This document shows, piece by piece, positions 35,473-55,642 of a stretch of 64,000 bases of DNA. This DNA is from an uncultured Solirubrobacteraceae bacterium. Its GTDB lineage: Bacteria; Actinomycetota; Thermoleophilia; Solirubrobacterales; Solirubrobacteraceae. Both the position numbers and the translations under genes were made by a program. The notes under the pieces are model-generated. The model had not been told where the DNA came from and made no database searches. It saw only the letters and a program-made list of their open reading frames with translations. Positions within the stretch are counted from its first letter, which is position 1; every line of letters begins with the position of its first letter. The stretch lies in the NCBI GenBank assembly GCA_963735435.1, contig CAVTKR010000005.1, positions 674,319-738,318 of the forward strand, written 5' to 3'.

Positions 35473-36378
35473 CTCCGCGAAGCCGTCGTCGGCCTCCCAG
35501 CCCCAGTGGAGCACGATCGGCGCCCAGAGCGCCGACTGGCCCTCGATCAGGCGCGAGGCCCCGTCCAGCACCTCGCCCGCGTGGCCGTAGAGCGGGTGAT
35601 ACGCGGGCAGGTAGACGGCGTCGTCCCGCCAGACCGGGCTGCGCTGGAAGCCGAGCAGGCCGACCGTCTCAGGCCCTCCGCACACAACGTCGAACTCACG
35701 GGCGAGCACCGGGTACTGGCGCGCGTCGAAGCGGTTGTACGGCGGCACGAAGACGCGGGGGCGGATGCCCGACGGCTCGAGCTCGGACAGCGCGGTCGCG
35801 AGCAGCTCCTCGGTCTCGCTCACGCTCAGTCCGCACAGCTCGGAGTGGCGCCGGGGGGAGGCGTGACGCGTGCGGTGGTCGAGGCCGTGCAGCCCGTAGA
35901 TGACGCCCTCGGCGGGCATCCTGGCCAGCAGCGCGCGCTCGTCGTCCTCGAGCGCCCGCCAGCGCGTCCCGGCCGGATCGAGCGACGCGTTCGAGACGCG
36001 CGGCAGCACGGCCACCAGATACGGCACGCCCGCGTCGTGCATCAGCTCGTGGAAGCGCAGATAGGCGCTCGTGCCGTAGCGCTCAGGTTCGTCCCAGGCC
36101 ATGTAGTGGGGGAACTCGTCCATGCGGATCAGGAACCGCGGCGGCCCCTCGGCGGCGTCGCCCAGGGCCGCGCGGCGCGCGGCCATCAGAGGCGCCGCAA
36201 CCGCCTGCTCGTACTCGAGCCGCCCCAGCTTGCGCTGGACGCGCTGGAGGAAGCGCACAGGCGCTGAGGGCACCCGACGCGGGCGCACTGCCGCGCGCAC
36301 GGCTCGCAGGCGCTCCGCGCCGGGAGGCGCGCCGGGACCGAGCAGCAGCCTGGTGCTCCTCGCGAGCTCGTCAGCCAT
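35383..36378 (-). CDS. DUF2334 / polysaccharide deacetylase-like protein
   Basis: FLIRMDEFPHY...VPYLVAVLPRVS...YGLHGLDHRTR pattern of the DUF2334 family. ATG 36378 overlaps the stop of the upstream GT (ATGGCTGA). Confidence 0.65.
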   Translation of the reverse strand: MADELARSTRLLLGPGAPPGAERLRAVRAAVRPRRVPSAPVRFLQRVQRKLGRLEYEQAVAAPLMAARRAALGDAAEGPPRFLIRMDEFPHYMAWDEPERYGTSAYLRFHELMHDAGVPYLVAVLPRVSNASLDPAGTRWRALEDDERALLARMPAEGVIYGLHGLDHRTRHASPRRHSELCGLSVSETEELLATALSELEPSGIRPRVFVPPYNRFDARQYPVLAREFDVVCGGPETVGLLGFQRSPVWRDDAVYLPAYHPLYGHAGEVLDGASRLIEGQSALWAPIVLHWGWEADDGFAELRRLLAAIAPYAARWEDFLAEVDASRLAA

Positions 36379-37588
36379 CGGCCAGCGCCGTCTCGTAGAC
36401 CTCCTCGGTCTGGGCCGCGATCGTCCTCCACGAATAGCGCTCGTCGGCGAGCCGCGCACCGGCCTCGCCGCGGCGCAGGCACTCCTGCGGCCCGGCCTCG
36501 ATCGCCGCTGAGAGCGCGTCGGTGAGCGAGGACGCGTCGGGCCGGGCGCAGACCCAGCCCGTCTCGCCGTCGATAACCGCCTCGGCCATGCCTCCGACGG
36601 GGTAGACGACGACCGGGCGCCGGAAGCCGTAGGCGAGCAGCAGCACCCCGCTCTGGCTGGCCACCCGGTAGGGCAGCGCGACGGTGTCCGACGCGGCGAA
36701 CAGCTCTGCCGCCTCGGACATCTCGAGGAAGCCCTCGCGGATCGTGATCCGCCCGGCGAGCGCCGGATCGGCCAGCGCCTCGCGGTTCTCCGCGAGAGCG
36801 CCCGCCTCCTGGCCGCCGATCAGCAGGTGCAGCCGCGGCAGTGCTCGCATTGCGACCAGCAGGTCGCCGAGGCCCTTGTCGGTCCGCAGCTGCCCGAACA
36901 TCAGCGTCACGTGGGCGTCCTCACCGGCCCCGATCGCGGCGCGCGCGGCGACGCGATCGGCCTCGCCGCCGGTGCGCGCCAGGCCGCCGTACTCGCCGTG
37001 CGGGATCACGACGGTGTGCCGGGCGATGTTCGCCGGGAGCCGCTCGAGGTCGGCGGCGGTGTGGACGATCGTCCGCGCGGTCATCGCGCCCTGCAGCCTG
37101 CGGGTCGCGGTCCGGAGCCGCCGCGCACGGCTGGTGCGCTCGAACGTGCCGTGAGCGGTCTGCACGATCGGCCGCCCGGCGAGCTTCAGCACCGACAGCG
37201 CAGGGACGCCGAGCTGCGGTATCTCCCACCCCTGGCTGTGCACGATCTGGCTGTGCCGTGCGAGCACCAGCAGGCGCGGCAGCGAGAACAGGAACAGGAG
37301 CCCGTTCAACGGCCTTTTGAGTCGCCAGGACGCGAGCCGGTCGCCGAGCCGCGTGCCGACGCGAACGTAGTGGAAGACGCCGCTCGGCGTGACGCCCTCG
37401 ACAGGCTCGTAGAGGTGGTCGTCGGCGGTCGCCAGGTCGATCCGCCAGCCGCGCGCGGCCAGCGCCCGTACGAGCGCACCGGTGTAGTCGGCGACACCGC
37501 CCCGACCGCCCTGCTCGATCATCAGCAGCCTGCGCTGCTGCGCTTGGTCGGGAGGGAGGGCTGGGCCGGCGCTCCGTATCCGCCTCAT
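36371..37588 (-). CDS. Glycosyltransferase family 4-like (GT-B)
   Basis: GGRGGVADYTGALVRALAARG N-terminal region and a GT-B C-terminal half. ATGA overlap with the upstream GT at 37585-37588. Confidence 0.75.
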   Translation of the reverse strand: MRRIRSAGPALPPDQAQQRRLLMIEQGGRGGVADYTGALVRALAARGWRIDLATADDHLYEPVEGVTPSGVFHYVRVGTRLGDRLASWRLKRPLNGLLFLFSLPRLLVLARHSQIVHSQGWEIPQLGVPALSVLKLAGRPIVQTAHGTFERTSRARRLRTATRRLQGAMTARTIVHTAADLERLPANIARHTVVIPHGEYGGLARTGGEADRVAARAAIGAGEDAHVTLMFGQLRTDKGLGDLLVAMRALPRLHLLIGGQEAGALAENREALADPALAGRITIREGFLEMSEAAELFAASDTVALPYRVASQSGVLLLAYGFRRPVVVYPVGGMAEAVIDGETGWVCARPDASSLTDALSAAIEAGPQECLRRGEAGARLADERYSWRTIAAQTEEVYETALADG

Positions 37589-40094: not shown

Positions 40095-41141
40095 GTGATG
40101 AGCTCGACGCCGATCGTCGTCCAGTATCTGTACGTCCACGAGCCCGAGGAGGGCTTCTCCTACCCCACCGCGCGCGCGGCGAACTCCGCCGCCCTCCTCG
40201 CCCAGCGTTACCTGGAGTGCGCGCTCACACAGGTCGCCTCGCTCGCCCTTCAGGACGCCGATTGCGAGCTCGTGCTCGCCACGAACATCACCGAGCGCTC
40301 ACTCGTCGGGCGCCGCGGCGCGACCCTGCTCGAGCACATCGAGAAGCTGGGCGCACGCGTCGTGCACACCCCGTACACGCACCGGCCTCGCGAGGGCACC
40401 GAGATCTACGTCTCCTCGCGCTACGTGCTCGACGCGATCATGACCGCGTCGGAGGGGCTCGACCCGGCGCGCCGGCTGTGGCTGACCGACCTCGACTGCG
40501 TCTGGGCCGACCCCGGCGCCGTCTTCGCGGCGGCCGCTCCCGAGAACGCGGTCGGCTGCGTCTTCATCGACTACCCCCCGGATTGGGACACGGTCCTCTT
40601 CGACGTCCACGGGCGCACGCGCAACGACATCGGCAGGTTGGCGGGGGAGTTGGGCGCCGACGTGCAGACCCCACCCTGGGTCGGCGGAGAGCTCCTGACC
40701 GGAACGGCGGCCTCGCTGCGGGATCTCGTCTCGACATGCGAGCGCCTGGACGCGCAGCTCGCCGCCAAAGAGGTGTGGCTGCCCACCGAGGAGCAGATCC
40801 TCTCACTCGCGGGCGCGCTCGGCATGATCCCGTTCGTGGATCTCTCGGCGGTCGCGCGGCGCATCACGACGGGCAAGCGCAGCCAGGCGACCCCCGTCCC
40901 GGATGCGGCGTCGCTCGGCCTGTGGCACCTGCCGTCGGAGAAGGGCCTCAGCATGCGCCGCACAGCAGGGCAGATCGTGCGCGGGCACACGAGCGCGCTC
41001 CGCGCCGACCTTGCAGACCGGCAGCGGCGCGCCCGCCGCTTCAACGTAGCCGGTGCCGGAGCGCTGCGCCAGGTGCGCGACGACGGCTGGATCGTCACTC
41101 AGCGACTGCGCAGCATGGGACCCCGGCTCGCCGGGTCCTGA
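40095..41141 (+). CDS. Hypothetical protein (possible GT-A-like nucleotide-sugar transferase)
   Basis: High-GC3 348-aa ORF of normal composition. LWLTDLDCVW contains a DxD-like motif. No confident family assignment from sequence alone. Confidence 0.5.
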   Translation: MMSSTPIVVQYLYVHEPEEGFSYPTARAANSAALLAQRYLECALTQVASLALQDADCELVLATNITERSLVGRRGATLLEHIEKLGARVVHTPYTHRPREGTEIYVSSRYVLDAIMTASEGLDPARRLWLTDLDCVWADPGAVFAAAAPENAVGCVFIDYPPDWDTVLFDVHGRTRNDIGRLAGELGADVQTPPWVGGELLTGTAASLRDLVSTCERLDAQLAAKEVWLPTEEQILSLAGALGMIPFVDLSAVARRITTGKRSQATPVPDAASLGLWHLPSEKGLSMRRTAGQIVRGHTSALRADLADRQRRARRFNVAGAGALRQVRDDGWIVTQRLRSMGPRLAGS

Positions 41142-41162: not shown

Positions 41163-41606
41163 TCAGGTAGTGCGGATGATCAGCACCGAGCAGGGCGCGT
41201 GATGGGACACCTTGTTCGGCACCGAGCCGAGCAGGAACCGCTTCGCGCCGGTCATGCCCTTGTTGCCGACGACGATCAGGTCGGCCTCCTGCTCCTCGGC
41301 GACATCGAGGATCGCGTCTGCAGGGTCGCCTTGGCGCGCGTAGATGGTGACCTCGACGCCCGCCGAGCTGGCCACCTCGGCGGCAGCCTCGAGCGTCGCA
41401 TCGACGTCCTCGCGCGGGTTGATCGTCCACTGGAGATCCTCGGGCGCCTGGCGGCGTTCCTCGGACAGGCGCTGCGAGGAGACAGGCTCGTAGGCGCTGA
41501 CGAGCTCCACCTTGGCGCCGACGGCTTTCGCCAGGTCGACCGCCTGGCGCACGGCCTGTCCGGCCGTGTCCGAGCCATCGGTCCCCACCACGATCGATTT
41601 GAACAT
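41163..41606 (-). CDS. Universal stress protein (UspA family)
   Basis: MFKSIVVGTDGSDTA...LIVVGNKGMTGAKRFLLGSVPNKVSHHAPCSVLII shows the canonical USP ATP-binding motif G-2x-G-9x-G(S/T). Confidence 0.9.
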   Translation of the reverse strand: MFKSIVVGTDGSDTAGQAVRQAVDLAKAVGAKVELVSAYEPVSSQRLSEERRQAPEDLQWTINPREDVDATLEAAAEVASSAGVEVTIYARQGDPADAILDVAEEQEADLIVVGNKGMTGAKRFLLGSVPNKVSHHAPCSVLIIRTT

Positions 41607-41667
41607 CCCGACCTCCTCGCCGCGTCGCCTCGCGGTCCGATGCCGCCTGCGGCGCGATCATACCCGG

Positions 41668-42837
41668 ATGGCACACGCTGAAGTCATCGACGATCTCGCC
41701 GCGGCGGCGGCGCTGGCGGGTGCGTGGGACGAGCTCGCGCAGGAAGCCTCGCTGCCCTTGTGCGCCCCTGGCTGGATGCTCTCGTGGTGGCGCCACATGG
41801 CCCCGGAGGGAAGCGAGCTTCGGATCATCGCGGTGCACGACGGCGAGACACTCGTGGCGCTGGCACCGTGGTTCGCGGGCCCCGGACCGCGGGGGCGCGT
41901 CGACGTGCGGTTCCTGGGCGCGCAGATCTCCGATCGCGTGGATGTCCTCTGCCGTCCCGGGCGCGAGCGCGAGGCCGCGGGTGCGATCCGGCGCGCGATC
42001 GGATCGGTGCGCCCGCGGCCGGACCTGATCGCCTTCGAGGCCGTCCCCGGGTCCTCCCGCTGGACGCGGCGCCTCGCTTCGGGCGCGGCGGGCCGTGCAC
42101 GGCTCTCCCGGTATCGGAACTCGGTGCTGCCGGCACCGACCGTCACGCTGCCGCAAGAGGGGGGCTTCGAGGGCTGGATGGCAAGCCGCTCCTCGAACTT
42201 CCGCTCGCAGATGCGTCGCATGCGGCGGAAACTCGAGTCCGGTGGAGGGGCTGTGCGGATGCTGCGTGAGCCGGCCGAGGTCCGCTCCGGCCTGGCGGCA
42301 CTGCTCGCGCTTCATCTCGACCGTTGGAGCGAGCGCGGCGAGTCAGGCCTCGCGCGCCAGGGTGTCCCGGAGCTGCTCGCGGACGCCGCGGCGGCGCTCG
42401 GTCCAGAGCGCCTGCGGCTCTGGGTGGCCGAGCTCGACGGCGAGCCGATCTCGGTTCAGCTGTTCATCGCCGCCGGCAGCGAGATCAAGTACTGGAACGG
42501 CGGCTGGGCGGAGGCGCACGCCGCGCTCAAGCCCTCGATGCTCACGATCCTCGCGGCGATCGAGGACGCGATCGGCCGTGGAGAGGAGCGGATGGACCTC
42601 GGCGTCGGGACCCACGAGTACAAGCTGCGCTTCGCCGACGGCGAGGACCCGATCACCTGGGGCGGGGTGATCGCCCGCAACCACCGCTGGCCTGCGACGC
42701 GCGCGGAGCTCGCGCCGATCGTGCTGCGCTACCGCGCCAAGCGCGCTGTGGAGGCGCTGCCGGAGCCGGTCACCGATCGGGTCGCCGCGGTTGTGAGGCG
42801 GCGGCGGGGGGCTGAGCCCCCTGCTCATTCGCCGTAG
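41668..42837 (+). CDS. GNAT-fold acyl/aminoacyl transferase, CelD/BcsL/FemAB-like (Acetyltransf_6 type)
   Basis: ATG 41668. N-terminal WDELAQEASLPLCAPGWMLSWW and C-terminal ISVQLFIAAGSEIKYWNGGWAEAHAALKPSMLTILAAIEDAI..G..RMDLGVG...YKLRFA are typical of this family. Confidence 0.7.
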   Translation: MAHAEVIDDLAAAAALAGAWDELAQEASLPLCAPGWMLSWWRHMAPEGSELRIIAVHDGETLVALAPWFAGPGPRGRVDVRFLGAQISDRVDVLCRPGREREAAGAIRRAIGSVRPRPDLIAFEAVPGSSRWTRRLASGAAGRARLSRYRNSVLPAPTVTLPQEGGFEGWMASRSSNFRSQMRRMRRKLESGGGAVRMLREPAEVRSGLAALLALHLDRWSERGESGLARQGVPELLADAAAALGPERLRLWVAELDGEPISVQLFIAAGSEIKYWNGGWAEAHAALKPSMLTILAAIEDAIGRGEERMDLGVGTHEYKLRFADGEDPITWGGVIARNHRWPATRAELAPIVLRYRAKRAVEALPEPVTDRVAAVVRRRRGAEPPAHSP

Positions 42838-44795
42838 ACGAGCGTCTCTTCCATCGTCCCCGGGCTGCACCAGAAGATCGAGCCCGAGACGGAGGCGAGG
42901 CGAGCGCCGGCGGCCAGGTTGTGCGCCTGCGTCATGCCCAGCCTCGGCAGGTGCTCCGCAGGCAGCACCGCGAACAGGAGCCGGTTGCCGGCCCGCAGGG
43001 ACGCGACGACCGAGATCTTCCCGCGCGCGACCTTCGACGAATGCAGGCGAATGTGACACGTGAAGCGATGGTTGGCGGACGCCTCGGCTCTGCATTGGCC
43101 GAGCTCGTGCCCGCCAGAGCGCGCGAGCAGTTGCACGCGGCCGGCAAGTGCCGGCATGGTGCTCATCACCAGCTCCTTGCCGTACACCATTGCGCGCGGG
43201 CGCGTGAGGTAGGTGGGGGTGGTGCCGGGTTTGCTCGTGGACGTCCCGGCGACGCCGCCTGAGCCGGTCGACCCCGGCGAGGGGGGGATTTCGATTGCAG
43301 GTGTCTCGACCGGGGGCGCCAGGATCACGACGGTCTGCGTGGCTTTGACGGACGGTTTCCCGGCGAGCTGAGCGGTCACCGTGACCGTCCCTCCTGCCGG
43401 CACGGCCGCCGGCGCCGTGAGGGTCGCGGAGTGCCCGGGTGCCGCCCCTCCGGCGATAGCGCCGCCACTGGTGCTCCATTGCACCGCTTCAGAGGTGTTG
43501 GTGGTTTCGGCGGTCAGCGTCCCCGCGGTCCCGGCGACCAGTGCCGAGGGCGCGCTCGTGATCGCGAGCGTCGGCGGTCCGGCGCCCACGGTCACCGAGA
43601 CTTTTCCTTCGACGGGGTTGCGCGGGAATTCGCTTTTCGTGTTCCGGGCCCAGAAGCCGAACGTGTCCGTCCCCGAGTAGCCCGGTGCAGGCGTGTAGGT
43701 GAGGTGTTCGCCGCTGCCGCTGAGCGTCCCGTGCGAGGGCTGGGTGTGCACTTCGTACTTCGCTTCGCTCGCGCTGACCCCGAAGGCCTTTGATTTCAGC
43801 GTGATCGAGACCGGGTGCCCGAACGGCGTTTCGACGGACTGCCCTTCGGCCACGAACCCCGGGATCACGGTCTTCGAGGACGCGTAGGCGACCGCGTTGA
43901 CCGGGTTGGCTTCGGTGATGAATTTTTCCGGGTTCACTTCCTCGCCCAGCCAGTATTCACCCGGGACGGCGTTCGAGGCGTCGACCCACTGCCACGCGAG
44001 GTTCTTGAGGTAGCGGTCGCGCCAGCCCGGGGAGATCCCCTCGGTCAAGCTGGTCGCGTTCGGCCGGTAGAGCTGGCAGAAGTCGCCGCGGATTTCGTCG
44101 TTGTAGACCGCGTTTTTGGGGCCTGTTTCTTCGAGCCGTTCGCTGTCCTCCAGACAGAACCCGACCTTCTGCGACGGAACGACTTCCTTCGCGCCGGGGG
44201 TGTTCGAGTTGTAGAGCCCGTACTTGGCGACGTGCTGCAGGTGCCAGTGGTGGTGGCCGTCGGCGTTGGCATAGACCATCGTGCCCGGGATCTTCGCCTG
44301 CGTGTGCTGGGGGTATTCGGGGGCGTTCGGTTCTTCTTCCTGTTCGGGCGTGCGCGTCATGAACAGGCGCTGTTCGACTTCCATCGGCGGCGTCGCGAGT
44401 TCTTCTTCCCATTTCTGGGGCAGCGGTTCGTTTTTTTCGCCCAGGCGTTTGGCTTCTTCTTCGACCTGCTGCTTGGTCTTGCCGTTGACTTTTCCTTCCG
44501 TCGCGCGGTGGCCGCGGACGTCGAGCGCGCCGTCGCCCTCGTTGTGCACGTAGCCGTTGAAACGCAGCAGCAGGCGTTTCGTACCTTCTTCGGCTTTGGT
44601 GGAGCCTTCGCTCGTCACCACCAGTTCCGGGGCCGTAGGAGCTTCGGAGACGAGATCGGGCAGCTGCGGAGATTCGCTCGCGCGGGCCGTCAGCGGCGAG
44701 GCCGGCACGAGCAGCACCGAAAGCGCGACGATCGGCCCGAGCAGCGCGACCCTGCGGGGGCCCCTTCCAAAGATCTGCGTCATCCGTGACACCAA
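42825..44795 (-). CDS. Secreted lysyl-oxidase-like (LOX catalytic domain) multidomain protein, paralogue A
   Basis: Signal peptide present. LOX-type motifs are LLLRFNGYVHNEG, DGHHHWHLQH (44241-44255), QKVGFCLEDS and GISPGWRDRY...AWQWVDASNAVPGEYW. These are followed by a cadherin/Ig-like domain (HGTLSGSGEHLTYTPAPGYSGTDTFGF), a Big_2-like domain and a 128-aa Cys-containing C-terminal domain. Start is TTG 44795 or ATG 44783. Confidence 0.85.
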   Translation of the reverse strand: MVSRMTQIFGRGPRRVALLGPIVALSVLLVPASPLTARASESPQLPDLVSEAPTAPELVVTSEGSTKAEEGTKRLLLRFNGYVHNEGDGALDVRGHRATEGKVNGKTKQQVEEEAKRLGEKNEPLPQKWEEELATPPMEVEQRLFMTRTPEQEEEPNAPEYPQHTQAKIPGTMVYANADGHHHWHLQHVAKYGLYNSNTPGAKEVVPSQKVGFCLEDSERLEETGPKNAVYNDEIRGDFCQLYRPNATSLTEGISPGWRDRYLKNLAWQWVDASNAVPGEYWLGEEVNPEKFITEANPVNAVAYASSKTVIPGFVAEGQSVETPFGHPVSITLKSKAFGVSASEAKYEVHTQPSHGTLSGSGEHLTYTPAPGYSGTDTFGFWARNTKSEFPRNPVEGKVSVTVGAGPPTLAITSAPSALVAGTAGTLTAETTNTSEAVQWSTSGGAIAGGAAPGHSATLTAPAAVPAGGTVTVTAQLAGKPSVKATQTVVILAPPVETPAIEIPPSPGSTGSGGVAGTSTSKPGTTPTYLTRPRAMVYGKELVMSTMPALAGRVQLLARSGGHELGQCRAEASANHRFTCHIRLHSSKVARGKISVVASLRAGNRLLFAVLPAEHLPRLGMTQAHNLAAGARLASVSGSIFWCSPGTMEETLVYGE

Positions 44796-44811
44796 GACAT
44801 CCTTTCCCTTC

Positions 44812-47800
44812 TCACGGCAGCGATGCGATCGCGCCCGGCCCCCCGAGCCGCAGCGACGGGCTGCAGATGTAGGCGAACGCGGCGCTCACGCCACCTTTGA
44901 TCGCCGGCAGCCGCGTGAGCATCCGCATCGTCGGCACGGGGACGCCCGAAACCCGGCGCGAGCCGAGGACGCGGTGGCCCGAGCGCAGCACGGCGCTGAC
45001 GTGCAGGTCAGCGTTGCGTGCCGCGCCGCGGAGCGGCAGGCGGCAGGTCACCCCGACGCCGCCGAGCGTCGCGTTCGAGCAGCTCCCGAGCAGCCGATCG
45101 CCCGCGCGCGCCGTGATCGTCACGATGCCCGCACGCCCGGCGGCCGTGGTGATCACCAGTTCGCGATTGATGATGATCGCCGAGAGCGAGCCCAGCGCCT
45201 GGCGCCCGGTTCCGGTTCCGGTCGCGCTGACGCTGGCGGCGGCCGGCGCGGGCGCAGACGCCGACGCGGACAGGGGATCGACCGTCACCTGCAGGCTCTG
45301 CCCGCGCGCGCCGGGCGCGGCTGCGGCGATCGTGACGGTCGTGGGGACATCCACGTGGGGCGCCAGGTACAGCCCGCCTGAAGAGACGGTGCCGGCACTG
45401 GCCGTCCAGGTGACGGGCCCGGTCGCGCCGTCGGCGAGCGCGGTCAGCTGCGCGGCCGTGCCCGAGGTCACCGTCTGCGGCCCGGCGAGCGCGACCCGTC
45501 CCGAGGGCTTGGCCGGCACGGAGACCGTGGTGCTCGCCCTCGCCGCGAGCGCCCCGCCGGCCGAGGCGCTGCCGTTGGCCTGGAAGCCGACCGGGCCCTG
45601 GCCGTAGCTTTCCCACGAGGTCTCGGCCGTGGCTTTGCTCAACCCGGTGGCGGTGGTCTCGACGTTGCCCGTCCCGCCCGAGCTCTTCGCGGCGTTGTAG
45701 TGCAGTTTGCCAGAGCCGAGCGGGAGTGCCACGAGCCAGTACTTCGTTCCGCTCGTGACTGAGACCGACAGGCCCGAGGCCGTGATCCAGGAGCTGACGG
45801 CGGGCGTTCCCGACGCCGTCGCGCTGCCGAGCACAGCGCCCGGTTTGCCGGCGTTTTCGGCGAAGAGCGCCAGCACCACTCCGGTCACTCCCGTGTTCGC
45901 TGTCGCGTTCGTGCGGAACAGCAGTTCTTCGACCGTGCCGCTGGCGGCGGCCGTGAACTGGAACGCTTCCTCACGTCCCGCGGTGGTCTGGTCGGAGACC
46001 GTGTACGTGGCGGTGGCGTCGCCGACGAGCAGGCCTTTGGTCCCCGCGGGCGCCGTGATTTCGATCGTCTTTTCGGCTTTCGCGCCTTTGCTCGTCGTCG
46101 CCGTGACCGTGACCTTGCCCCCAGCAGGCACCGATTCAGGCGCCGTGTATTTCCCTTCGCTGGTGATCGTGCCCGCGCTCGCGCCCCACGTCACCGTCGG
46201 CGAGTCGTTCGTCACTTTCGCGGTCAACTGAACGCTCGCACCGGTGTTCATGCTCGCCGGCGCACCTTCGATCACCACACTCGGCACCGGCGCCGTGACT
46301 TCGATCGTCTTTTCGGCTTTCGCGCCTTTGCTCGTCGTCGCCGTGACCGTGACCTTGCCCCCAGCAGGAACGGATTCGGGCGCCGTGTATTTCCCTTCGC
46401 TCGTGATCGAGCCCGCGCTCGCGCCCCACGTCACCGTCGGCGAGTCGTTCGTCACTTTCGCGGTCAACTGAACGCTCGCACCGGTGTTCATGCTCGCCGG
46501 CGCACCTTCGATCACCACACTCGGCACCGGCGCCGTGACTTCGATCGTCTTTTCGGCTTTCGCGCCTTTGCTCGTCGTCGCCGTGACCGTGACCTTGCCC
46601 CCAGCAGGAACGGATTCGGGCGCCGTGTATTTCCCTTCGCTCGTGATCGAGCCCGCGCTCGCGCCCCACGTCACCGTCGGCGAGTCGTTCGTCACTTTCG
46701 CGGTCAACTGAACGCTCGCACCGGTGTTCATGCTCGCCGGCGCACCTTCGATCACCACACTCGGCGGCGCTTCGCCCACGGTGCCGTTGGCCTGGAAGCC
46801 GACCGGCCCCTGGTTGAAGGCTTCCCAGGACGTCTGGGCGGTGGCTGTGCCCATGCCGCCGGCGGTGCTCTCGACGTTGCCCGCGCCACCCGAGCCGACG
46901 GCGGCGTTGTAGTGCAGCTTGCCCGAGCCCGTGGGCAGCGCGACGAGCCAGTACTTGGTTGCGCTCGTGACCGCGACCGACAGCCCGGAGACCTTGATCC
47001 ACGAGCTGACCGCCGGCGTGCCCGAGGCCGTCCCCTGTCCGAGCACCGCGCCGGGTTTGCCGCCGTTTTCCGCGAACACCGCCAGCACCAGACCGGTCAC
47101 GCCGGTGTTGGCCGTGGCGTTGGTCCGGAACAGGAGTTCTTCGACTTTGCCGGTCGTTTTCGCGGTGAACTGAAACGCTTCCTCGCGCCCAGCCGTGGTC
47201 TGGTCGCCGACCGTGTAGGTCGCCGTGGCGTCCCCGACGAGGAGCCCTTTCGTCCCGGCCGGGGCGCGTGATTTCGATTTTCTTTTCGGCTTTCGCGCCT
47301 TTGCTGGTCGTCGCCGTGACCGTCACCGTTCCGCCGGCGGGGACTTCGGCGGGCGCCGTGTATCTGCCTTCGGAGGTGATGGCGCCGGCGCTCGCCCCCC
47401 AGGTGACCGTCGGGGAGTCGTTGACGACTTTCGCGGAGAGCTGCACGCTCGAGCCCGCCTGCATGCTCGCGGGCGCGCCTTCGATCGAGACCGCCGGCTG
47501 GGTCGAGGAGGTGACTTCGATCGAGACCGTGGCCACCTGCGGGCTTTCCGGGAATTTGCTCGCGGCGTCGGCGGCCGAGAACGTGAAGCTGTCGGTGCCC
47601 GTGAACCCTGCGGTGGGGGTGTAGGTGACCTTGCCTTCGCTGTTGATCGTGCCGAGGCTCCCGTGGCCGGGGCCGGAGACGATCTTGTAGGTCGGTTTGT
47701 TGCTGTCTTTGAACGCTTTGGAGGTCAGGGTGATGGTCTTGGCGATGCCGGCCGGCGTTTCGGTGGCCTGGGGCTGCGCGTCGAAGCCCGGCACGACCGT

Positions 47801-48673
47801 CGCCGCGGTCGAGTAGACCGGCACGTTGGCTTCGCCCGTTTCCTTGACGAACCCGAGCGGGTTGACGTCCTCGCGCAGCCAGTATTCGCCCGGCAGCACG
47901 TTCGAGATGTCGACCCACTGCAGCGCGAGCGAGGAGTCGTAGACGTCGCGCCAGCCGACCGAGATGCCCTCGAACAGGCTTGTCGCGTTGGGCCGGTAGC
48001 GCTGGCAGAATTCGCGGAAGGGGGCGACGTTGTCGGCGTAGACGGCGCTGGAGGGCCCGATCGAGGTTTCGACGTGCTGGCTGTCGTCGAGGCAGAAGCC
48101 GACCTTCTGAGCGGGCGCGACTTCGGCCGTCTTGCTCACGTTCCACAGCGAGTAGCGCGCGATCTTCTGCAGGTGCCAGTGGTGGTGGCCGTCGGCGGCC
48201 GCGTAGATCAGTTCCCCGCTGCTCGTTTCATCGACATGCGCGCGTTCGATGTTTTTTTCTTCGGCGGTCGTCGTGAACAGGCGCTGGAAGGTCTTCATCG
48301 CCGGGACGGCGAGTTCTTCTTCGTCTTTCTGCGACAGCGGTTCTTCTTTTTCGCGCGCTTTTTCGACTTCTTCGGTGACTTTTTTGCTGACTTTCGGCGC
48401 TTCGCGCGAGCCGCGGAAGTCGACGGCGCCCGGCCCCTTGTTGTGGATGTAGCCGTTGAAGCGCAGCAGTAGCCGGGGAGTCCCGGTCGAGGTGTCCGTC
48501 GCGATCGACTGCGCGTCGGGCGGGTCGGCGACCAGGTTCGGGAGCAGCGTCGCGCCCGAAGCGCCCGCGACCCGGGCCGACGCGGCCACGGAGAGCAGGA
48601 CGGCGGCGAGCGTCATCACTGCGGCAACGGCGCGCAGACCACTCATGCGGCGCTGTGAGACCTTCATCTCCAT
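44812..48673 (-). pseudogene. Secreted lysyl-oxidase-like multidomain protein, paralogue B (~1286 codons if read through); frame broken by one extra base near 47266
   Basis: The N-terminal part is ORF 46136..48745, in frame down to 47267. It has ATG 48673 after GGGGTGGAG, a signal peptide and the LOX motifs LLLRFNGYIHNKG, DGHHHWHLQK (48173-48187), QKVGFCLDDS and GISVGWRDVY...LQWVDISNVLPGEYW. After ...AKAEKKIEIT the frame turns Arg-rich. The sensible continuation APAGTKGLLVGDATATYTV... lies in the frame of ORF 44812..47100, which is open up to 47265. An intact copy of the same junction (KTIEITAPAGTKGLL) occurs at 46037-46070. Confidence 0.8.
46049..46764 (-). repeat. Three tandem 240-bp coding repeats (80-aa Big_2-like Ig domain); two are identical
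   Basis: Direct comparison shows 46171-46524 is identical base for base to 46411-46764 (240-nt offset). The third unit (46049-46290) differs at a handful of positions. Each unit encodes SVVIEGAPASMNTGASVQLTAKVTNDSPTVTWGASAGSITSEGKYTAPESVPAGGKVTVTATTSKGAKAEKTIEVT. Confidence 0.95.
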
Positions 48674-48795
48674 CCAGACTCCACCCCTGCCATCCGTGAC
48701 GCTGTCTCCGGGTATGCGCCTTCGACGAGCGAGAGTACCAGTCACCCGAATGTGGGGGAGTGGGCCGGGCAGATCTTTAGGGTCTCCAAGAAACC

Positions 48796-49569
48796 ATGAT
48801 CGACCTCCACTGCCATCTGCTGCCGGGCATCGACGACGGACCGCCCGACATCGAGGGCTCGATCGCGATGGCGCGACGTGCGCTTCGGGCGGGAATCGAG
48901 ACGGTCGTGGCGACGCCGCACGTGAACTCGCGCTATCCCAACGATCCGGAGACGATCGCGGCCGGCATCGCCGATGTCCGGGCGGCGCTGGCCCGCGAGC
49001 AGCTCGATCTCGAGGTCCGTCCGGGCGCTGAGATCGCCGTCAGCTACCTCGCCGAGACGGACACGTCCGGGATCGGCGCGCTGACGCTGGGGGGCGGCGA
49101 ATGGCTGCTGATCGAGCCCCCCTTTGCGACGGTGGCGAGCGGCCTCGTCACGACGGTGCAGGGCCTGCTCTGGGACGGGCATCGCGTCGTGCTCGCCCAC
49201 CCGGAGCGCTGTCCCGCGATCCATCGCGATCCTTCGATCGTGCGCAGGCTCGTCGACGACGGCGTGCTGATGTCGCTGACAGCCGGCTCACTCGCCGGGC
49301 GCTTCGGCTCGCAGGCGCGACGCGTGGCCGTGGCGCTGTTGCGCGAGGAGATGGCCCACAACGTGACCTCGGACTCACACGACGCCGGGAACCGCCCGCC
49401 GTCGATCGCGCCCGAGGTGCAGCAGGCCGGGTTCGGCGAGTTGGTCGGATGGCTGACCGAGGAGGTCCCCGCCGCGATCCTCGGCGGCGGCGCTGTGCCT
49501 CCACGCCCGCCGCGCGCGGCGCGCGAGGGCCTGCGTGCCCGCGTTGCGCGGGCGCTCAAGCGAGCCTGA
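48796..49569 (+). CDS. CpsB/YwqE-type PHP-family protein-tyrosine phosphatase
   Basis: MIDLHCHLLPGIDDGPPDIEGSIAMAR...VVATPHV... is the hallmark N-terminus of the capsule phosphatase CpsB. 257 aa. Confidence 0.9.
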   Translation: MIDLHCHLLPGIDDGPPDIEGSIAMARRALRAGIETVVATPHVNSRYPNDPETIAAGIADVRAALAREQLDLEVRPGAEIAVSYLAETDTSGIGALTLGGGEWLLIEPPFATVASGLVTTVQGLLWDGHRVVLAHPERCPAIHRDPSIVRRLVDDGVLMSLTAGSLAGRFGSQARRVAVALLREEMAHNVTSDSHDAGNRPPSIAPEVQQAGFGELVGWLTEEVPAAILGGGAVPPRPPRAAREGLRARVARALKRA

Positions 49570-49726
49570 CGATCGCGATCACCATCCCGATCAGGACGAA
49601 CACGACGATCGCGACCTGGATCCAGATCCAGTGCTGGGGCATCCGACGGCCAGCCTAGCTGGGTCCGCCCTCCGGGACCGCCCCAACCTTCGCCTCAGCT
49701 TTAGGGTCGCCACTATCGTGTCGGGA

Positions 49727-51016
49727 ATGCACCGAGCGCACCGCAGGCTCGCCGCGCTGCTCGCGTTGGCAGCGCTGGCGACCTACGCGGCGAGCGCCCA
49801 GGCCGCGACGGGCCCGCTCGGCGGCGTCAACATCCCCGGTCTCAGCGCGCTGTCCTCGGCGGCGGCGACCGATCACGTCGTCCAGACCGCCTCGAAGATG
49901 CACGCACGCGTCGTGCGGGTCGACTTCCCGTGGTCGCTCTTCGAGCCCGACGGGCCGGCGCTCGACCCGGCCGCGCTCGCGCGTGCCGATCGCCTTCTCG
50001 CGGACACCTCGGCGGCCGGCATCAAGGTGGTCGCGACGGTCGCCAACACGCCGTGCTGGGCCTCCTCCGCGCCTCCGTCGGCGCGGAGCGGCTGCGCGAC
50101 CGGCAACACCGACACCGCCGGAGCCTGGCCGCCGAGCAACCCGGCGACGTACGCCGCCTTCCTGAACGCGCTCGTGGCCCGCTACGGCACCAAGATCACG
50201 GCGATCGAGGTCTGGAACGAGCCCGACCAGGCCAACGAAGACTATTTCGCCGGACCCGACAAGGCCAAGAACTACGCCGCCGTCGTACGCGCCGCCTATC
50301 CCGCCGTGAAGGCGGCGAACCCGGGCGTGCTGGTCCTTGCCGGCTCGCTCGTCGGCTCGAACGGCAACTTCCTGCGCGCCCTCTACGCGGCCGGGATGAA
50401 GGGCTACTACGACGGCCTCTCGGTGCACTTCTACAACCTCACGCTCGCCTCGCTGCGATCGATCCACGAAGCCCAGCTGGCGAACGGCGACACCAAGCCG
50501 CTGTGGCTGGACGAGTTCGGCTGGACAAGCTGCTGGCCGGGGCGCAAGATCGAGCAGGAACAGGCCTGCGTCACGCCGCGGACGCAGGCGCTGAACCTGC
50601 GCAACTCGGTCCGCGAGATGGCGCGCGCCCCCTACGTGGCGGCGGCGATGGTCTACAAGCTCGAGGACTCCCACGGCGAAGACTTCGGGTCGGTGACGAC
50701 AGGCGGTGCTCGCAAGCCCGCCTTCGGCGCGCTCAGCGAAGCCTTCGTCAAGCCGTTCGGGGCCTACAGCCGCGTGAGCCTGAGCCTGCGCCGCCGGGGT
50801 TCTCACCTAGTGGCGAGCGGCGGCGGCCCGGTCGGCGACTTCCTGGAGCTCGAAGCCTTCAAGGGGACCCACCTGCGCTACCGCGCGCTGTTCACCCAGG
50901 ATCGCTTCAACCGCTTCTCGATCCCGCTGCCCTCGCAGCTCGGGACCCGCGGCCTGCGCGTGCGGGTCTTCCAGTACTGGACGGGTCCCTCGCGCGCCGC
51001 CACGCGGAGCGTCTGA
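49727..51016 (+). CDS. Secreted glycoside hydrolase, clan GH-A TIM barrel (GH5/GH39-like)
   Basis: ATG 49727 with signal peptide MHRAHRRLAALLALAALATYAASAQA. IEVWNEPD (acid/base Glu) and LWLDEFGW (nucleophile Glu). Confidence 0.7.
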   Translation: MHRAHRRLAALLALAALATYAASAQAATGPLGGVNIPGLSALSSAAATDHVVQTASKMHARVVRVDFPWSLFEPDGPALDPAALARADRLLADTSAAGIKVVATVANTPCWASSAPPSARSGCATGNTDTAGAWPPSNPATYAAFLNALVARYGTKITAIEVWNEPDQANEDYFAGPDKAKNYAAVVRAAYPAVKAANPGVLVLAGSLVGSNGNFLRALYAAGMKGYYDGLSVHFYNLTLASLRSIHEAQLANGDTKPLWLDEFGWTSCWPGRKIEQEQACVTPRTQALNLRNSVREMARAPYVAAAMVYKLEDSHGEDFGSVTTGGARKPAFGALSEAFVKPFGAYSRVSLSLRRRGSHLVASGGGPVGDFLELEAFKGTHLRYRALFTQDRFNRFSIPLPSQLGTRGLRVRVFQYWTGPSRAATRSV

Positions 51017-51060: not shown

Positions 51061-52626
51061 CTATTCCGCGTTGCGGAAGAGCGCGACCAGCGTCAGCGCG
51101 AGGATCTTCAGGTCGAGCCCCAGCGACCAGTGGGCGATGTAGTAGTTGTCCCACTCGACCCGCTCTGCAAGCGAGGTCTGGCCGCGCAGCCCATGGACCT
51201 GCGCCCAGCCGGTGATGCCCGACTTGACACGGTGGCGATCGCCGTAGCGAATGATGTCGTTGCGGAAGAGTTCGACGAACTCGGGGCGCTCGGGGCGCGG
51301 ACCGACGAGGCTCATGTCGCCGCGCAGCACGTTGAAGAGCTGCGGCAGCTCGTCGAGCGAGCTTTTACGCATGAAGCGCCCGACAGCGGTGCGGCGGTCC
51401 TCGCCCTCGACTCCGCCGGGCGCGATGTCGCCTGCGAGCAGGAAGTCCAGCGCCGTCTCGTCCTCCTCGATCAGCTCGCCCTGGCGCGCCGCACGCATCG
51501 AACGGAACTTGTAGAAGTCGAAGACGCGCCCGTCGCGTCCGACACGGCGCTGCTTGAAGAGGATCGGTCCGGGACTCGAAAGCTTGACGGCGATCGCGAC
51601 CAGCGCCAGCACCGGCGAGAGCAGGATCAGCAGGACCATGGCGAGCATCCGGTCCAGGCCGTGCTTGATCGTGAACTGGGCGCCCTTCGGGTCCACGGCG
51701 GTGAACGAGAGCAGCGGCAGGCCGCCGACGGTGTCGTAGCCCACGCGGTCGTTGATCAGGTCGAACATGCGCGGCACAACCGACACGTCCACGCCCAGTT
51801 CCTGACAGCGCGGGATCAGCCGGCTGACGCGGGCGTCCGCGACCGATGAGAAGGCGACGATCAGATACTTGACGCCGGTCCGTTCGACGGCCTCCTCGAG
51901 GTCGTCGATCGTGCCCAGCACGGGCACCTCGCGGCCGCCGACCTCGGCGACCGAGCGCGGGTCCTCGTCGAGGAAGCCAACCGGGGCCAGCCCGTACTCG
52001 GGGTGGTTCTCCAGCCGGCGCGCGACCTGAGCGCCGACCACGCCGGCGCCCATGATGAGGACGGGCCTGCCGATCAGGCGCTTGGCGCGGGCCCGGCGCT
52101 GGGCTAGCGCCAGCACGGTCCGGCCGATGCCGACACCCACGAGCGCGTAGAACCAAGCGCGGATCCACTGCCCCTGTTCAGGCACTTCGTGGTTCGCAGC
52201 CAAGCCCAGGACCGCCACCGCCATCGCCGCGACGGAGACGCCGCTGATCACGGGCACGATGCCGTCGAGGACCTGGGTGCGGAGCTTCGTGCGATACAGG
52301 CCCCGCAGATAGAAGAGGAGCACCACCAGGAACGGCATCAGCAGCAGCGGAGCGCGGGGTTCGTTGATGCCGAACAGGCTGCCGAAGCCGCCGAGCGCGA
52401 TCACGAGCGCCACCCACACCATCACGAAGTCCACGATCGGCCGCACCACGCCCCAGCCAGAGCCCTCCAGCGCCCACTGCAGCGGCCCGTGGAAGGTGCC
52501 GCGGTGCAGCGCCCGCGGAGTCGGGGCGTCGTGAGCCAGCTCGCTTCGCAGCGAGATGGTGCTGGATGTCGTCTGTTGAGTTACGCGCGCGCGGTCCATT
52601 TGCAGCCCGGGGATTTCCGCCTTCAA
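51061..52626 (-). CDS. Polyprenyl-phosphate sugar phosphotransferase (priming enzyme, WbaP/EpsB-like)
   Basis: N-terminal TM bundle, a Rossmann-like CoA_binding_3 region (VLIMGAGVVGAQV), and a C-terminal Bac_transf domain with DELPQLFNVLRGDMSLVGPRPERPEFV. The start may be ATG 52599. Confidence 0.9.
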   Translation of the reverse strand: MKAEIPGLQMDRARVTQQTTSSTISLRSELAHDAPTPRALHRGTFHGPLQWALEGSGWGVVRPIVDFVMVWVALVIALGGFGSLFGINEPRAPLLLMPFLVVLLFYLRGLYRTKLRTQVLDGIVPVISGVSVAAMAVAVLGLAANHEVPEQGQWIRAWFYALVGVGIGRTVLALAQRRARAKRLIGRPVLIMGAGVVGAQVARRLENHPEYGLAPVGFLDEDPRSVAEVGGREVPVLGTIDDLEEAVERTGVKYLIVAFSSVADARVSRLIPRCQELGVDVSVVPRMFDLINDRVGYDTVGGLPLLSFTAVDPKGAQFTIKHGLDRMLAMVLLILLSPVLALVAIAVKLSSPGPILFKQRRVGRDGRVFDFYKFRSMRAARQGELIEEDETALDFLLAGDIAPGGVEGEDRRTAVGRFMRKSSLDELPQLFNVLRGDMSLVGPRPERPEFVELFRNDIIRYGDRHRVKSGITGWAQVHGLRGQTSLAERVEWDNYYIAHWSLGLDLKILALTLVALFRNAE

Positions 52627-53350: not shown

Positions 53351-55642
53351 CTATCGAAGCACGATCGGCCTGTCGAGCCGAATTTCGGATGTTCGGGCCT
53401 TCGGCTTGGACCCTAGGCGATCACCCGGATGTACGAGCACGGACGTGTCACTGCTCACGCGAGCTCTTGCGGCCTGGAGCAGGATCGCCTCGTTCAGCCG
53501 CGCCACGTCGACGCGCCCGCCCCGCCGTGCGATCTCGAGCGCCTGCCTGGTCAGCGGATCGCGGGGGTTGAGCGCGGCGGCCCGCGCCAGCAGCGCGAGC
53601 GCGCGAGCCCGTTCTCCCCGCGTCGAAGCGATCGCACCGCGCTCCAGCGTCGCGTAGGCGTCATCCGGCGAGCGCGACAGAGCGCGCGCGAATTCACGGT
53701 CGGCGCGTGCCAGTTCGTCGCGGCGCACGGCGATCGAGCCCGCAACGAGATTGGGCTGCGCGCTCCACGGGTTCAGTCCGGCGGCGTCTTCCAGGCGGGC
53801 GTAGGCGGTGCCCGGCGAACGGGTCCAGATGCGCGCCGCCTGCTCGACCTCCAACCCACTGAGCCACGGCCCGAGCAGGGCCAGCGCGGCGCCGAGGAAC
53901 ACCAGGGCGGCGAGGATCGTGGCGGCGATCACCGCCGGGCGACCGGCACGCCTGCGGCCGGGCTGGGCCCCCGGCGCCGGGCGCGTGCCCTCGCCCCTCG
54001 ACGTTGTGCCCGCGGCATCGGGCCCGTCCGACGCGGCCTGCCGCTCCTTCTCGCCGTCCGCCGGGCGCCCGCGTCCGGGGGCCGTCTCTCCTCGCACCTC
54101 GCTGTCGCGAGCGCTCGCACGCTCTCCGCGCGGCACCAGCGCGCAGGCGAGCCCCAGCATCGCGAACGCGGGCGCACCGAGGCCGGCGAACTCCCAGAAC
54201 CAGTCGACCGAGCCGTGGATCACCCAGTAGCCGAAGCCCGCCAGGGCGGCTGCGGCGACGCCGGCGGCCAGGCGGTCCGGCGAGCGGGCCGCGCGCATCG
54301 CCGCCAACAGCGCCGCGCCGAGCCCGATCAGGGCCAGCAGGGTTCCGATCACGCCTGTCTGGGAGAGCGTGCGCAGCTCGACGCTGTGCGGGTAGCGGGG
54401 CGTCTCGCCGCTGTGGCCGTGTCGCAGGTACTGCTGCTGGAAGTTGTCGGCTCCGATCCCGGCCGCGGGGTGGGCCCGGAATTCGTCGAGCGCGACGCGA
54501 AAGAAGTCGTAGCGGTTGCTGCCGAGACCGCTGAGCAGCCGGTTGCCGCCGCCGATCCCGTAGCCGCCCTTGAAGCTGTGCCAGGCTTTTTCCGCGCGCG
54601 TGACCGGGTTGCCCGCGGCGACGAGCCCGCCCGCGACCACCGCGACGAGTGCGACGATCGCCGCCGCCGCGGTGAGCCGGTGCAGGAGCCCGGGCGGGCC
54701 GGGCGCGTGGCCCGCGCGGCGCGCCTCCAGCGCCGCGCCGCCGGCGACGAGCAGCGTCACGACGAGCGCTGCCAGCAGCGTGGCAGTGCTCGCGGTGTGC
54801 ACGCGAGAGGGCACGGCTTCGCCCGCGCGCAGGTGGTCCCCCACGCGAAGCACCGCGGGGAGCGCCGCCGCCACGCCGGCCGCGACCGGCACGAGCAGCG
54901 CGAAGGTCCGCGTCCGTCCGGGCAGCAGGGCGAAGACGAGCACGGCGGTGATCGGCGTGGCGTAGAGCGAGCCGCGACTCTGGCTGAGCACCGCGACCTC
55001 GGCGAGCACCACCGCCGAGCCGGCCAGCAGGCCGCGCAGGGCCCACGGGAGCCGGCGCTCGCGCGCCAGAAGCAGCGCCGGCCAGAACGCCATCAGCCAC
55101 TCGGCGGCGTTCGCGTTGGGGTACCCGCTCGGGTACTCGAGCCGTCCCCCGGGGATCGCGGAGGCAAGGGTCGCGTGGGAAGCACCCGCGAGGTGCAGAA
55201 GCACGTACAGGGACAGGCCGGCGATGCAGAGCGTCCAGACGACCAGCAGCACCGCGGCGGTCGTCCCGCGCTGGGGCCACCAGGCGAAGAGCACGAACAC
55301 CAGCAGGTAGAGCAGCGTGCGGTCGGCCCCTTCGAAGGCGTCGCCGGGCGACGCGGCCCACGCGATCGAGAGGTAGCTGAACGCCGTGTAGGCGGCGAGC
55401 GCGCCGACCGCCACGAGCACCGGCACGGGGGGGCGGGGACGCCCGCGAAGCGCCACCACTGCGATCCCGAGCAGCACCAGCAGCGCGAGGCCGCCGGGCG
55501 CCCAGTGCGTCAGGGGATAGCCCGCCTGATCGGTTGCCCACACGACGAACAGGGCGATCGCCACCAGGCACGCGACCGTCGCGGGCGCCGCGCGCAACGG
55601 CGCCGTGAGCTTGGCGGTCATCTGCCTTGGAACGATAATCAC
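53351..55642 (-). CDS. O-antigen ligase/polymerase-like membrane protein fused to C-terminal TPR repeats
   Basis: About 12 TM segments with a Wzy_C-like loop (RYPHSVELRTLSQTGVIGTLLAL). After a Pro/Arg/Gly-rich linker and a further TM helix come TPR-like repeats (YARLEDAAGLNPWSAQ...ADREFARALSRSPDDAYATLERG...ALALLARAAALNPRDP). Confidence 0.8.
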   Translation of the reverse strand: MIIVPRQMTAKLTAPLRAAPATVACLVAIALFVVWATDQAGYPLTHWAPGGLALLVLLGIAVVALRGRPRPPVPVLVAVGALAAYTAFSYLSIAWAASPGDAFEGADRTLLYLLVFVLFAWWPQRGTTAAVLLVVWTLCIAGLSLYVLLHLAGASHATLASAIPGGRLEYPSGYPNANAAEWLMAFWPALLLARERRLPWALRGLLAGSAVVLAEVAVLSQSRGSLYATPITAVLVFALLPGRTRTFALLVPVAAGVAAALPAVLRVGDHLRAGEAVPSRVHTASTATLLAALVVTLLVAGGAALEARRAGHAPGPPGLLHRLTAAAAIVALVAVVAGGLVAAGNPVTRAEKAWHSFKGGYGIGGGNRLLSGLGSNRYDFFRVALDEFRAHPAAGIGADNFQQQYLRHGHSGETPRYPHSVELRTLSQTGVIGTLLALIGLGAALLAAMRAARSPDRLAAGVAAAALAGFGYWVIHGSVDWFWEFAGLGAPAFAMLGLACALVPRGERASARDSEVRGETAPGRGRPADGEKERQAASDGPDAAGTTSRGEGTRPAPGAQPGRRRAGRPAVIAATILAALVFLGAALALLGPWLSGLEVEQAARIWTRSPGTAYARLEDAAGLNPWSAQPNLVAGSIAVRRDELARADREFARALSRSPDDAYATLERGAIASTRGERARALALLARAAALNPRDPLTRQALEIARRGGRVDVARLNEAILLQAARARVSSDTSVLVHPGDRLGSKPKARTSEIRLDRPIVLR

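Follow-up and report, generated by a model that had tools for sequence, protein, structure and literature searches.

Why should a polysaccharide locus of an uncultured soil actinobacterium contain two adjacent genes whose products resemble the lysyl oxidases (LOX) of animals, and are these products genuine members of that family? We addressed this question in a stretch of 64,000 nucleotides, hereafter the window, from an uncultured Solirubrobacteraceae bacterium (assembly GCA_963735435.1, contig CAVTKR010000005.1, positions 674,319 to 738,318 of the forward strand), the GC content of which is about 70-71%. An earlier reading made from the letters alone, referred to below as the sequence-only reading, had singled out this pair as secreted LOX-like proteins. 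Judged by sequence comparison and structure prediction, both proteins are true lysyl oxidase family members. Our overall reading is that they constitute an exported LOX-type copper/lysine tyrosylquinone (LTQ) amine oxidase pair which belongs to the main exopolysaccharide (EPS)/capsule locus and acts on cell-surface amines, and we put its probability at roughly one half. The features on which the argument turns are the following:

42825-44795, minus strand: gene 1, short LOX-like protein of 656 amino acids (open reading frame, ORF)
44812-48673, minus strand: gene 2, long LOX-like protein with one 1-nt insertion, repaired product of 1286 amino acids (three-frame translation, Pfam)
43881-44678, minus strand: LOX catalytic domain of gene 1, residues 40-305, including a K/E-rich helical insertion of ~70 residues (AlphaFold2, AF2; Foldseek)
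44241-44255, minus strand: HxHxH of gene 1, putative copper ligands H181/H183/H185 (alignment with LOXL2)
44166-44168, minus strand: K210 of gene 1, aligned with the LTQ lysine (alignment with LOXL2)
44010-44012, minus strand: Y262 of gene 1, aligned with the LTQ tyrosine (alignment with LOXL2)
47819-48547, minus strand: LOX catalytic domain of gene 2 (Pfam LOX, E=4.2e-14)
48173-48187, minus strand: HxHxH of gene 2, H163-H167 (coordinate check)
48104-48106, minus strand: K190 of gene 2, at the LTQ lysine position (coordinate check)
47939-47941, minus strand: Y245 of gene 2, at the LTQ tyrosine position (coordinate check)

The two genes lie on the same strand, separated by 16 nt, and the ORF coordinates bear out the arrangement that had been described. 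Gene 2 starts with an ATG at 48673, preceded by the Shine-Dalgarno sequence GGGGTGGAG, and ends with a TGA at 44812-44814; the 16-nt gap contains a further Shine-Dalgarno sequence, GGGAAAGGA, ahead of gene 1. By inspection, both N-termini are signal-peptide-like: a basic n-region is followed by a hydrophobic core and a site resembling AxA (TARA/SE for gene 1, VAGA/SG for gene 2), and residues 1-39 of gene 1, which comprise this stretch, are modelled by AF2 with a predicted local distance difference test score (pLDDT) below 50. From these sequence features, the pair probably represents paralogous, Sec-exported LOX-family members encoded in a two-gene operon. A scan of 42500-49100 for promoters and terminators returned no promoter-like site and fewer terminator-like sites than in shuffled sequences, such a scan being uninformative at ~70% GC.

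The assignment to the LOX family rests on three lines of evidence: profile scores, invariant catalytic residues and a predicted fold. Scored against the Pfam Lysyl_oxidase model (PF01186), gene 1 reaches 45 bits (E=1.3e-11) and gene 2 reaches 53.1 bits (E=4.2e-14), both far above the gathering cut-off of 20.4 bits; the LOX domains of the two genes are 54% identical to one another. A phmmer search against all PDB chains yielded human LOXL2 (5ZE3) as its sole match (E=8e-5). In the alignment with 5ZE3, H181, H183 and H185 of gene 1 pair with the HxHxH motif, K210 with the lysine of HKASFCLED and Y262 with the tyrosine of WDMY, which we take to be the residues of LOXL2 that bind copper and the two from which LTQ is formed. 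The codons that the sequence-only reading had assigned to these positions turned out to be exact in both genes.

Two alignments, comprising 34 and 121 sequences with an overall identity of only 40-75%, show H181, H183, H185, K210 and Y262 to be invariant, together with the cysteines C214 and C240 and the flanking motifs. The ~70-residue helical K/E-rich insertion, which separates the LLLRFNGY strands from the HxHxH motif, is likewise conserved and confidently modelled. Could the LOX-like domain nevertheless be a binding or structural element, without oxidase chemistry, of what are in essence surface adhesins or structural envelope proteins? Most of the length of both proteins is taken up by Ig-like/cadherin-like repeats typical of adhesins, and the full-length AF2 model of gene 1 (pLDDT 76) retrieved with Foldseek generic Ig tandems alone (nuclear pore, Sidekick, S-layer and cadherin proteins). 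However, the three histidines, the lysine, the tyrosine and their motifs remain invariant across 121 sequences while the rest of the protein falls to ~45% identity, which is the pattern of a maintained active site, and we therefore consider a purely adhesive or structural function very unlikely.

Since the full-length search was uninformative on the catalytic domain, the LOX domain of gene 1 was remodelled alone from the 121-sequence alignment, giving a pLDDT of 90.1 and a predicted template modelling score (pTM) of 0.86. Searched with Foldseek against 350,542 PDB chains, this model matched 5ZE3 chains A and B alone at significance (E=7.8e-8 and 1.7e-7, probability 1.00), with template modelling scores of 0.49-0.51 when normalised to the query, the length of which includes the insertion; the next match had an E-value of 7e-3 and a probability of 0.09. 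Note that the LOXL2 template represents the precursor state, in which the lysine and the tyrosine are themselves far apart. Topaquinone copper amine oxidases were considered as an alternative family and rejected: there was no Pfam match, and the Foldseek hits 8j6g, 1spu and 2y74 had E-values of 0.24-0.45 at a probability of 0.01. Thus, the animal-LOX-like catalytic domain that had been proposed for both proteins holds up in sequence and in predicted structure, and it is highly likely that we are dealing with LOX-family amine oxidases. By homology to animal LOX and to the archaeal HTU-LOX, the chemistry probably involves copper and LTQ.

The earlier description of gene 2 (44812-48673) as a single gene does not hold as it stands. 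The interval is 3862 nt long, which is not divisible by three, and the break in the frame had been overlooked. In three-frame translation the reading frame is clean as far as ...AKAEKKIEIT and the protein resumes in the next frame as ...GTKGLLVGD..., and DNA alignment with the orthologue at the related locus L001 places the lesion as follows:

47254-47260, minus strand: frameshift site with one extra base, GGCCGGG here against GG-CGGG in L001

Because of this 1-nt insertion, gene 2 as sequenced splits into ORFs 46136-48745 and 44812-47100. Removal of the extra base yields a protein of 1286 amino acids with no internal stop, which aligns over its full length with the intact 1281-residue L001 orthologue at 89.7% identity. 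Taken at face value, the lesion would leave gene 1 as the only working enzyme and gene 2 as a true pseudogene, reducing the tandem pair to one enzyme and a relic. The frameshift is present in the sequence as given, and no slippery motif was seen at 47254-47260, nor is the extra base found in the orthologue, which led us to reject programmed frameshifting as an explanation. Against a pseudogene stands the fact that identity to the orthologue is as high past the shift (90.3%) as upstream of it (88.7%), and that the correct frame is free of stops. This undiminished conservation points to a mistake in the assembly or to a mutation that arose very recently. Moreover, the site is a G/C run, of the kind in which assembly indels are common, and homologues of domain X, a module of gene 2 described below, are often fragments of 120-290 amino acids on long contigs, suggesting that genes elsewhere are broken in a similar way. 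We therefore regard decay of gene 2 as improbable; an assembly indel in the G/C run or a very recent lesion is most likely.

Downstream of the catalytic domains the two proteins are composed largely of small β-rich modules, and the Ig-like, cadherin and Big-type domains that had been recognised there were recovered by Pfam as Big_9, Cadherin_5 and aBig_2. As resolved by AF2 and Pfam, gene 1 encodes, in order, a signal-peptide-like stretch, the LOX domain, Big_9, a further Ig-like domain (~405-495), a low-complexity linker (499-527; Pro/Gly/Thr, disordered in the model) and a C-terminal β-sandwich. The repaired product of gene 2 has the order signal-peptide-like stretch, LOX, Big_9/Cadherin_5, aBig_2, domain X, three aBig_2 domains, domain X, Ig-like domain and C-terminal sandwich. 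The modules are located as follows:

43638-43853, minus strand: Big_9 bacterial Ig domain of gene 1, residues 315-386 (PF17963 E=3e-5; AF2 pLDDT >90)
42936-43208, minus strand: C-terminal β-sandwich of gene 1, residues ~530-620, present in gene 2 too (AF2 pLDDT 88-94)
46768-47257, minus strand: domain X of gene 2, copy 1, ~165 residues (copy 2 at 45571-46050)
46049-46765, minus strand: three tandem 240-nt repeats of gene 2, 98% identical, each encoding one aBig_2/Ig_3-like domain of 80 residues (Tandem Repeats Finder, Pfam)

The C-terminal sandwich is without a Pfam family in a search at E<=0.1, and NCBIfam and a phmmer comparison with the PDB likewise yielded nothing specific for it; two of its cysteines, C568 and C580, are invariant in the homologue alignment. 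Domain X, which carries the motifs GTKGLLVGD...KYWLVALP...GFQANG and might be a binding module, gave nothing specific in Pfam (E<=0.1), NCBIfam or a phmmer search of the PDB; its homologues are few, unannotated and restricted to the clade. The same three 240-nt repeat copies are present in the L001 orthologue with near-identical sequence. The repeat-rich part of gene 2 also contains two high-GC3 antisense ORFs, 45707-46228 and 47268-47621 (both plus strand), which, unlike the real gene, passed a simple GC3 gene filter; they are spurious and arise from the Thr/Ala/Gly-rich repeats in a region of lower GC content (0.67) and strong AT skew (-0.30).

What ties these enzymes to a polysaccharide? 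The pair lies within a Wzx/Wzy locus of ~38 kb, at about 18.4-56.4 kb of the window, in which we found Polysacc_synt_3, two Wzy_C proteins, Bac_transf/TIGR03025, Wzz together with a P-loop protein, and CpsB_CapC. The locus also encodes five GT1/GT4 glycosyltransferases, an NTP_transferase, two epimerases and two DegT aminotransferases, and further a PIG-V-like GT-C, methyltransferases, a DUF2334 protein, an ATP-grasp enzyme and Usp. The neighbourhood proposed by the sequence-only reading was borne out by Pfam, which identified an Acetyltransf_6 GNAT, CpsB_CapC, two DegT proteins, Wzx, two Wzy_C proteins and DUF2334:

22689-29081, minus strand: left part of the locus, with the second Wzy_C, Wzz/P-loop (BY-kinase-like), GT1 and Wzx flippase (Pfam)
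30033-32323, plus strand: two tandem DegT/DnrJ/EryC1 sugar aminotransferases (Pfam E ~1e-107 each)
35383-36459, minus strand: DUF2334 (polysaccharide-deacetylase-like) protein (Pfam E=2.6e-14; 86% identical to the homologue at locus L023)
41512-42837, plus strand: Acetyltransf_6 (FemAB-like GNAT), convergent with gene 1, the end of which it overlaps (Pfam E=1.5e-27; syntenic in 14 loci)
48796-49569, plus strand: CpsB/CapC-type phosphatase, divergent from gene 2 (PF19567 E=5e-42; syntenic in 14 loci)
49535-51016, plus strand: secreted Glyco_hydro_cc-like glycosidase (Pfam E=2e-6; syntenic in 19 loci)
51061-52626, minus strand: priming polyprenyl glycosylphosphotransferase, Bac_transf with CoA_binding_3 (Pfam; NCBIfam TIGR03025 at 414 bits, cut-off 295)
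53351-55642, minus strand: Wzy_C polymerase/ligase-like membrane protein (Pfam)

Relatives of the pair are numerous. More than 464 homologues with the ~650-residue LOX plus Big_9 architecture are present in the protein database, the best of them 73% identical, and the exact protein is absent; JGI names some of them 'Lysyl oxidase/Bacterial Ig domain', and NCBI uses 'lysyl oxidase family protein'. Among 1.84 billion representatives at 50% identity, the LOX domain retrieved 2235 clusters at E<=1e-3, 112 of them reaching E<=1e-30, and only about two dozen align in one piece across the helical insertion. A scan of one genome per species gave 47 related loci, all in metagenome-assembled genomes of Solirubrobacterales/Solirubrobacteraceae/Thermoleophilia, in keeping with a Solirubrobacteraceae-like origin of the window and with its GC content; the neighbour proteins at these loci were mapped by tblastn and clustering. 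A common gene order of Wzy, priming transferase, glycosidase, (CpsB), one or two LOX, GNAT, Usp, ATP-grasp and GT4 is shared by ~19 of the 47, and it is kept even where the neighbours are as little as 55-65% identical. The two-gene arrangement, in which a divergent short type comes after a long one, is seen again in L001, L013, L021, L023 and L026.

The association with polysaccharide genes extends beyond this common order. In L025 and L028, where the locus is rearranged, the LOX gene adjoins those for Wzx and a polysaccharide deacetylase, and in L027 it lies beside a paralogous Wzy/priming-transferase set (~30% identity). That the linkage is kept through rearrangement and seen at a paralogous locus argues for more than inertia. 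In a neighbour-joining tree of LOX domains, calculated without support values, the EPS-linked copies are spread over several clades, which hints at an old linkage. An EPS link for the family as a whole was considered and rejected, given that five distant short LOX paralogues reside in unrelated neighbourhoods; the linkage thus belongs to this subfamily and not to bacterial LOX in general. Within the pair, gene 1, the short LOX that lies downstream, changes at a much higher rate than gene 2, with 70% against 90% identity to the respective L001 orthologues, the flanking genes being 79-96% identical. In L020 and L041 a P-type ATPase of ~870 residues is inserted between the priming transferase and the glycosidase; by eye it has a PEGL motif, which points to a P2-type and not a Cu-type (CPC) enzyme, and we rejected it as a candidate copper pump.

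Secreted LOX oxidases could also serve ends that have nothing to do with the polysaccharide, scavenging environmental amines for nitrogen, inactivating aminoglycosides and polymyxins or making H2O2, in which case their position in the locus would be a historical accident. The relaxed specificity of HTU-LOX from Haloterrigena turkmenica lends some credence to this: the enzyme, described in 2019, is a copper-dependent (copper is needed for refolding), BAPN (β-aminopropionitrile)-sensitive amine oxidase that accepts lysine polymers, aminoglycosides and polymyxin, i.e. aminomethyl groups on sugars and diaminobutyrate (Dab) side chains, and the authors, who term its native role 'cryptic', suggest nitrogen acquisition or competition (PMC6452851). 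Furthermore, the genomes studied here encode several LOX paralogues, most of them in unrelated contexts. Yet the position between CpsB and GNAT is kept in ~19 species-level genomes with strongly diverged neighbours, the LOX genes are still tied to polysaccharide genes in the rearranged or paralogous loci L025, L028 and L027, and the long tails of Ig-like domains and domain X suggest an enzyme that is tethered and does not diffuse freely. On balance, we judge scavenging or defence somewhat unlikely as the explanation for this pair.

That the LOX pair acts on the envelope or the EPS matrix is, in turn, a tentative proposal. Several observations weigh against it. More than half of the 47 loci (~25) lie outside polysaccharide loci, in varied contexts that include lipid metabolism, MFS transporters and lipases, and all five of the five sampled distant short LOX paralogues, when their contigs were inspected, were not near polysaccharide genes. 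The linked loci all come from one order, so the synteny may largely reflect vertical inheritance, and this phylogenetic confinement limits the weight of the linkage as functional evidence. There is no obvious Lys-rich or collagen-like substrate gene adjoining the LOX pair, and gene 2 is formally disrupted in the sequence as given. In ordinary amino sugars the C2 amine is carried by a secondary carbon and is a poor substrate for LOX-type chemistry. Finally, the prokaryotic LOX that has been assayed is the archaeal HTU-LOX and not a bacterial member (PMC6452851).

How do the two proteins compare with systems already described? With animal LOX (LOX, LOXL1-4; LOXL2 5ZE3) they share PF01186, the HxHxH motif, the LTQ lysine and tyrosine positions, the FCLED and QWVD..PG.Y motifs, one disulfide pair position and, judged by the N-termini, probable secretion. 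They differ in being only ~18% identical, in lacking the fourth (first) histidine of the animal motif, in carrying the ~70-residue helical K/E-rich insertion ahead of HxHxH, and in having one conserved disulfide position, whereas LOXL2 has five disulfides. SRCR domains and a propeptide are absent, the C-terminal side being made up instead of Big_9, aBig_2, domain X and the β-sandwich, and the genomic partner is a polysaccharide pathway rather than collagen or elastin. The matrix-modifying enzymes encoded in EPS loci, namely the PgaB/IcaB deacetylases, PelA and the PslG glycosidases, are all hydrolases. They are secreted, as is predicted for the LOX pair, are likewise encoded in a polysaccharide locus and modify the polymer after export (in the case of LOX, as proposed here), and like theirs the locus in the window has a glycosidase and a DUF2334 deacetylase-like gene. 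To our knowledge no amine oxidase has been reported as a matrix modifier of an EPS locus, and we found none in such a role in the literature searched.

LOX domains of prokaryotes were surveyed in 2015, when Grau-Bove et al. described them in Bacteria (Bacteroidetes, Actinobacteria, Proteobacteria, Gemmatimonadetes, as well as Deinococcus-Thermus) and Archaea, already noting the loss of the first animal histidine in bacterial LOX; the architectures were single-domain in all but three, and a genomic-context link was not reported (PMC4448552). The proteins of that survey likewise conserve the His, Lys and Tyr residues and often have a signal peptide, whereas the pair described here consists of tandem multi-domain paralogues of 650-1290 residues inside an EPS locus. 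HTU-LOX is similarly a prokaryotic LOX, set apart by description rather than by direct sequence comparison: it is archaeal and single-domain, has an N-terminal autoinhibitory stretch and has no reported EPS context. Literature searches on bacterial LOX and EPS, on Solirubrobacter and on Streptomyces LTQ yielded nothing past these two studies (PMC4448552, PMC6452851). Since bacterial LOX has been known since 2015 and an archaeal LOX is a proven copper amine oxidase, we are not dealing with a new enzyme class. The sequence-only reading, which knew of no characterised bacterial system with such an architecture or context, thus appears to have been right as to the architecture and the locus linkage and overstated the case in that bacterial and archaeal LOX are already published and labelled in the databases. 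What appears to be undescribed is the multi-domain architecture (helical insertion, Big_9/aBig_2, domain X and C-terminal sandwich), the conserved tandem paralogy of the LOX genes and their conserved embedding in a Wzx/Wzy polysaccharide locus.

If the pair does act at the cell surface, we envision the following sequence of events. After export, the LOX domain would bind copper via H181/H183/H185, and K210 and Y262 would be self-processed to LTQ. The mature enzyme would then oxidise surface primary amines (R-CH2-NH2 + O2 + H2O -> R-CHO + NH3 + H2O2), with the Ig-like domains, domain X and the C-terminal modules serving as spacers or anchors that hold it in the envelope or matrix. The resulting aldehydes could condense with nearby amines, rendering the capsule or matrix stiffer or insoluble. 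A role in matrix oxidation or cross-linking is what we infer here; the conserved gene linkage makes the tie to the envelope plausible rather than proven.

Two kinds of substrate can be envisaged, the lysine side chains of surface proteins or an aminomethyl/aminoacyl substituent on an amino-sugar polymer. As to the former, two large Big_13/PKD repeat surface proteins that adjoin a subtilase are encoded in the window, at 9814-14381 (minus strand) and 15661-17091 (plus strand), and a homologue of the one with 1061 residues lies a few genes from a LOX pair in L004; these are candidate surface-protein substrates. As to the latter, an amine-bearing or aminoacylated sugar could be supplied by the neighbouring gene products, i.e. 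the two DegT proteins, the ATP-grasp enzyme, the FemAB-like GNAT and DUF2334, and a glycan-borne amine is conceivable as a substrate because HTU-LOX accepts amino-sugar antibiotics. The most specific version of this idea, namely that the EPS-linked pair oxidises an aminomethyl or aminoacyl (e.g. Lys/Orn-type) glycan substituent produced by DegT/ATP-grasp/GNAT so as to create aldehyde/imine cross-links in the capsule, strikes us as rather unlikely. Were it true, the pair would represent the first lysyl oxidase directed at a glycan, and a prokaryotic LOX would for the first time have been given a native function; it would also follow that LOX matrix cross-linking is older than the animals.

Three further observations concern the surroundings of the pair. 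A protein of 348 residues (40095-41138, plus strand), the gene for which is flanked by those for ATP-grasp and Usp, is without a match in Pfam and NCBIfam and occupies the same position in six related loci. Beside the polysaccharide locus, 57088-58392 (plus strand) encodes an unusual fusion of a ribonucleotide-reductase-small-chain-like (ferritin-like di-iron) domain with an SCP2/alkyl-sulfatase C-terminal domain; it adjoins a TetR regulator (56359-57018) and is found next to the polysaccharide locus in five related genomes. At the left edge of the window, two tandem Peptidase_S51 (dipeptidase E/cyanophycinase-like) genes at 2242-3947 (plus strand) adjoin an ABC-2 transporter pair (423-2275).

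The interest of the locus is tempered by the fact that the functional claim is inferred and that the hosts are mostly uncultured; should the hypothesis fail, the pair would simply add more members to an already recognised family. The native function of prokaryotic LOX has been called unknown or cryptic in both papers that deal with it (PMC4448552, PMC6452851). A LOX subfamily that occupies a conserved position in the EPS locus of ~20 Solirubrobacterales species and is equipped with tethering-type Ig domains offers a first concrete, testable hypothesis for such a function, and may also provide a source of soluble bacterial LOX for biomaterial cross-linking. If true, our reading would bear on the evolutionary origin of extracellular-matrix cross-linking chemistry and on the way in which abundant, poorly cultivated soil Actinomycetota build a resistant envelope.

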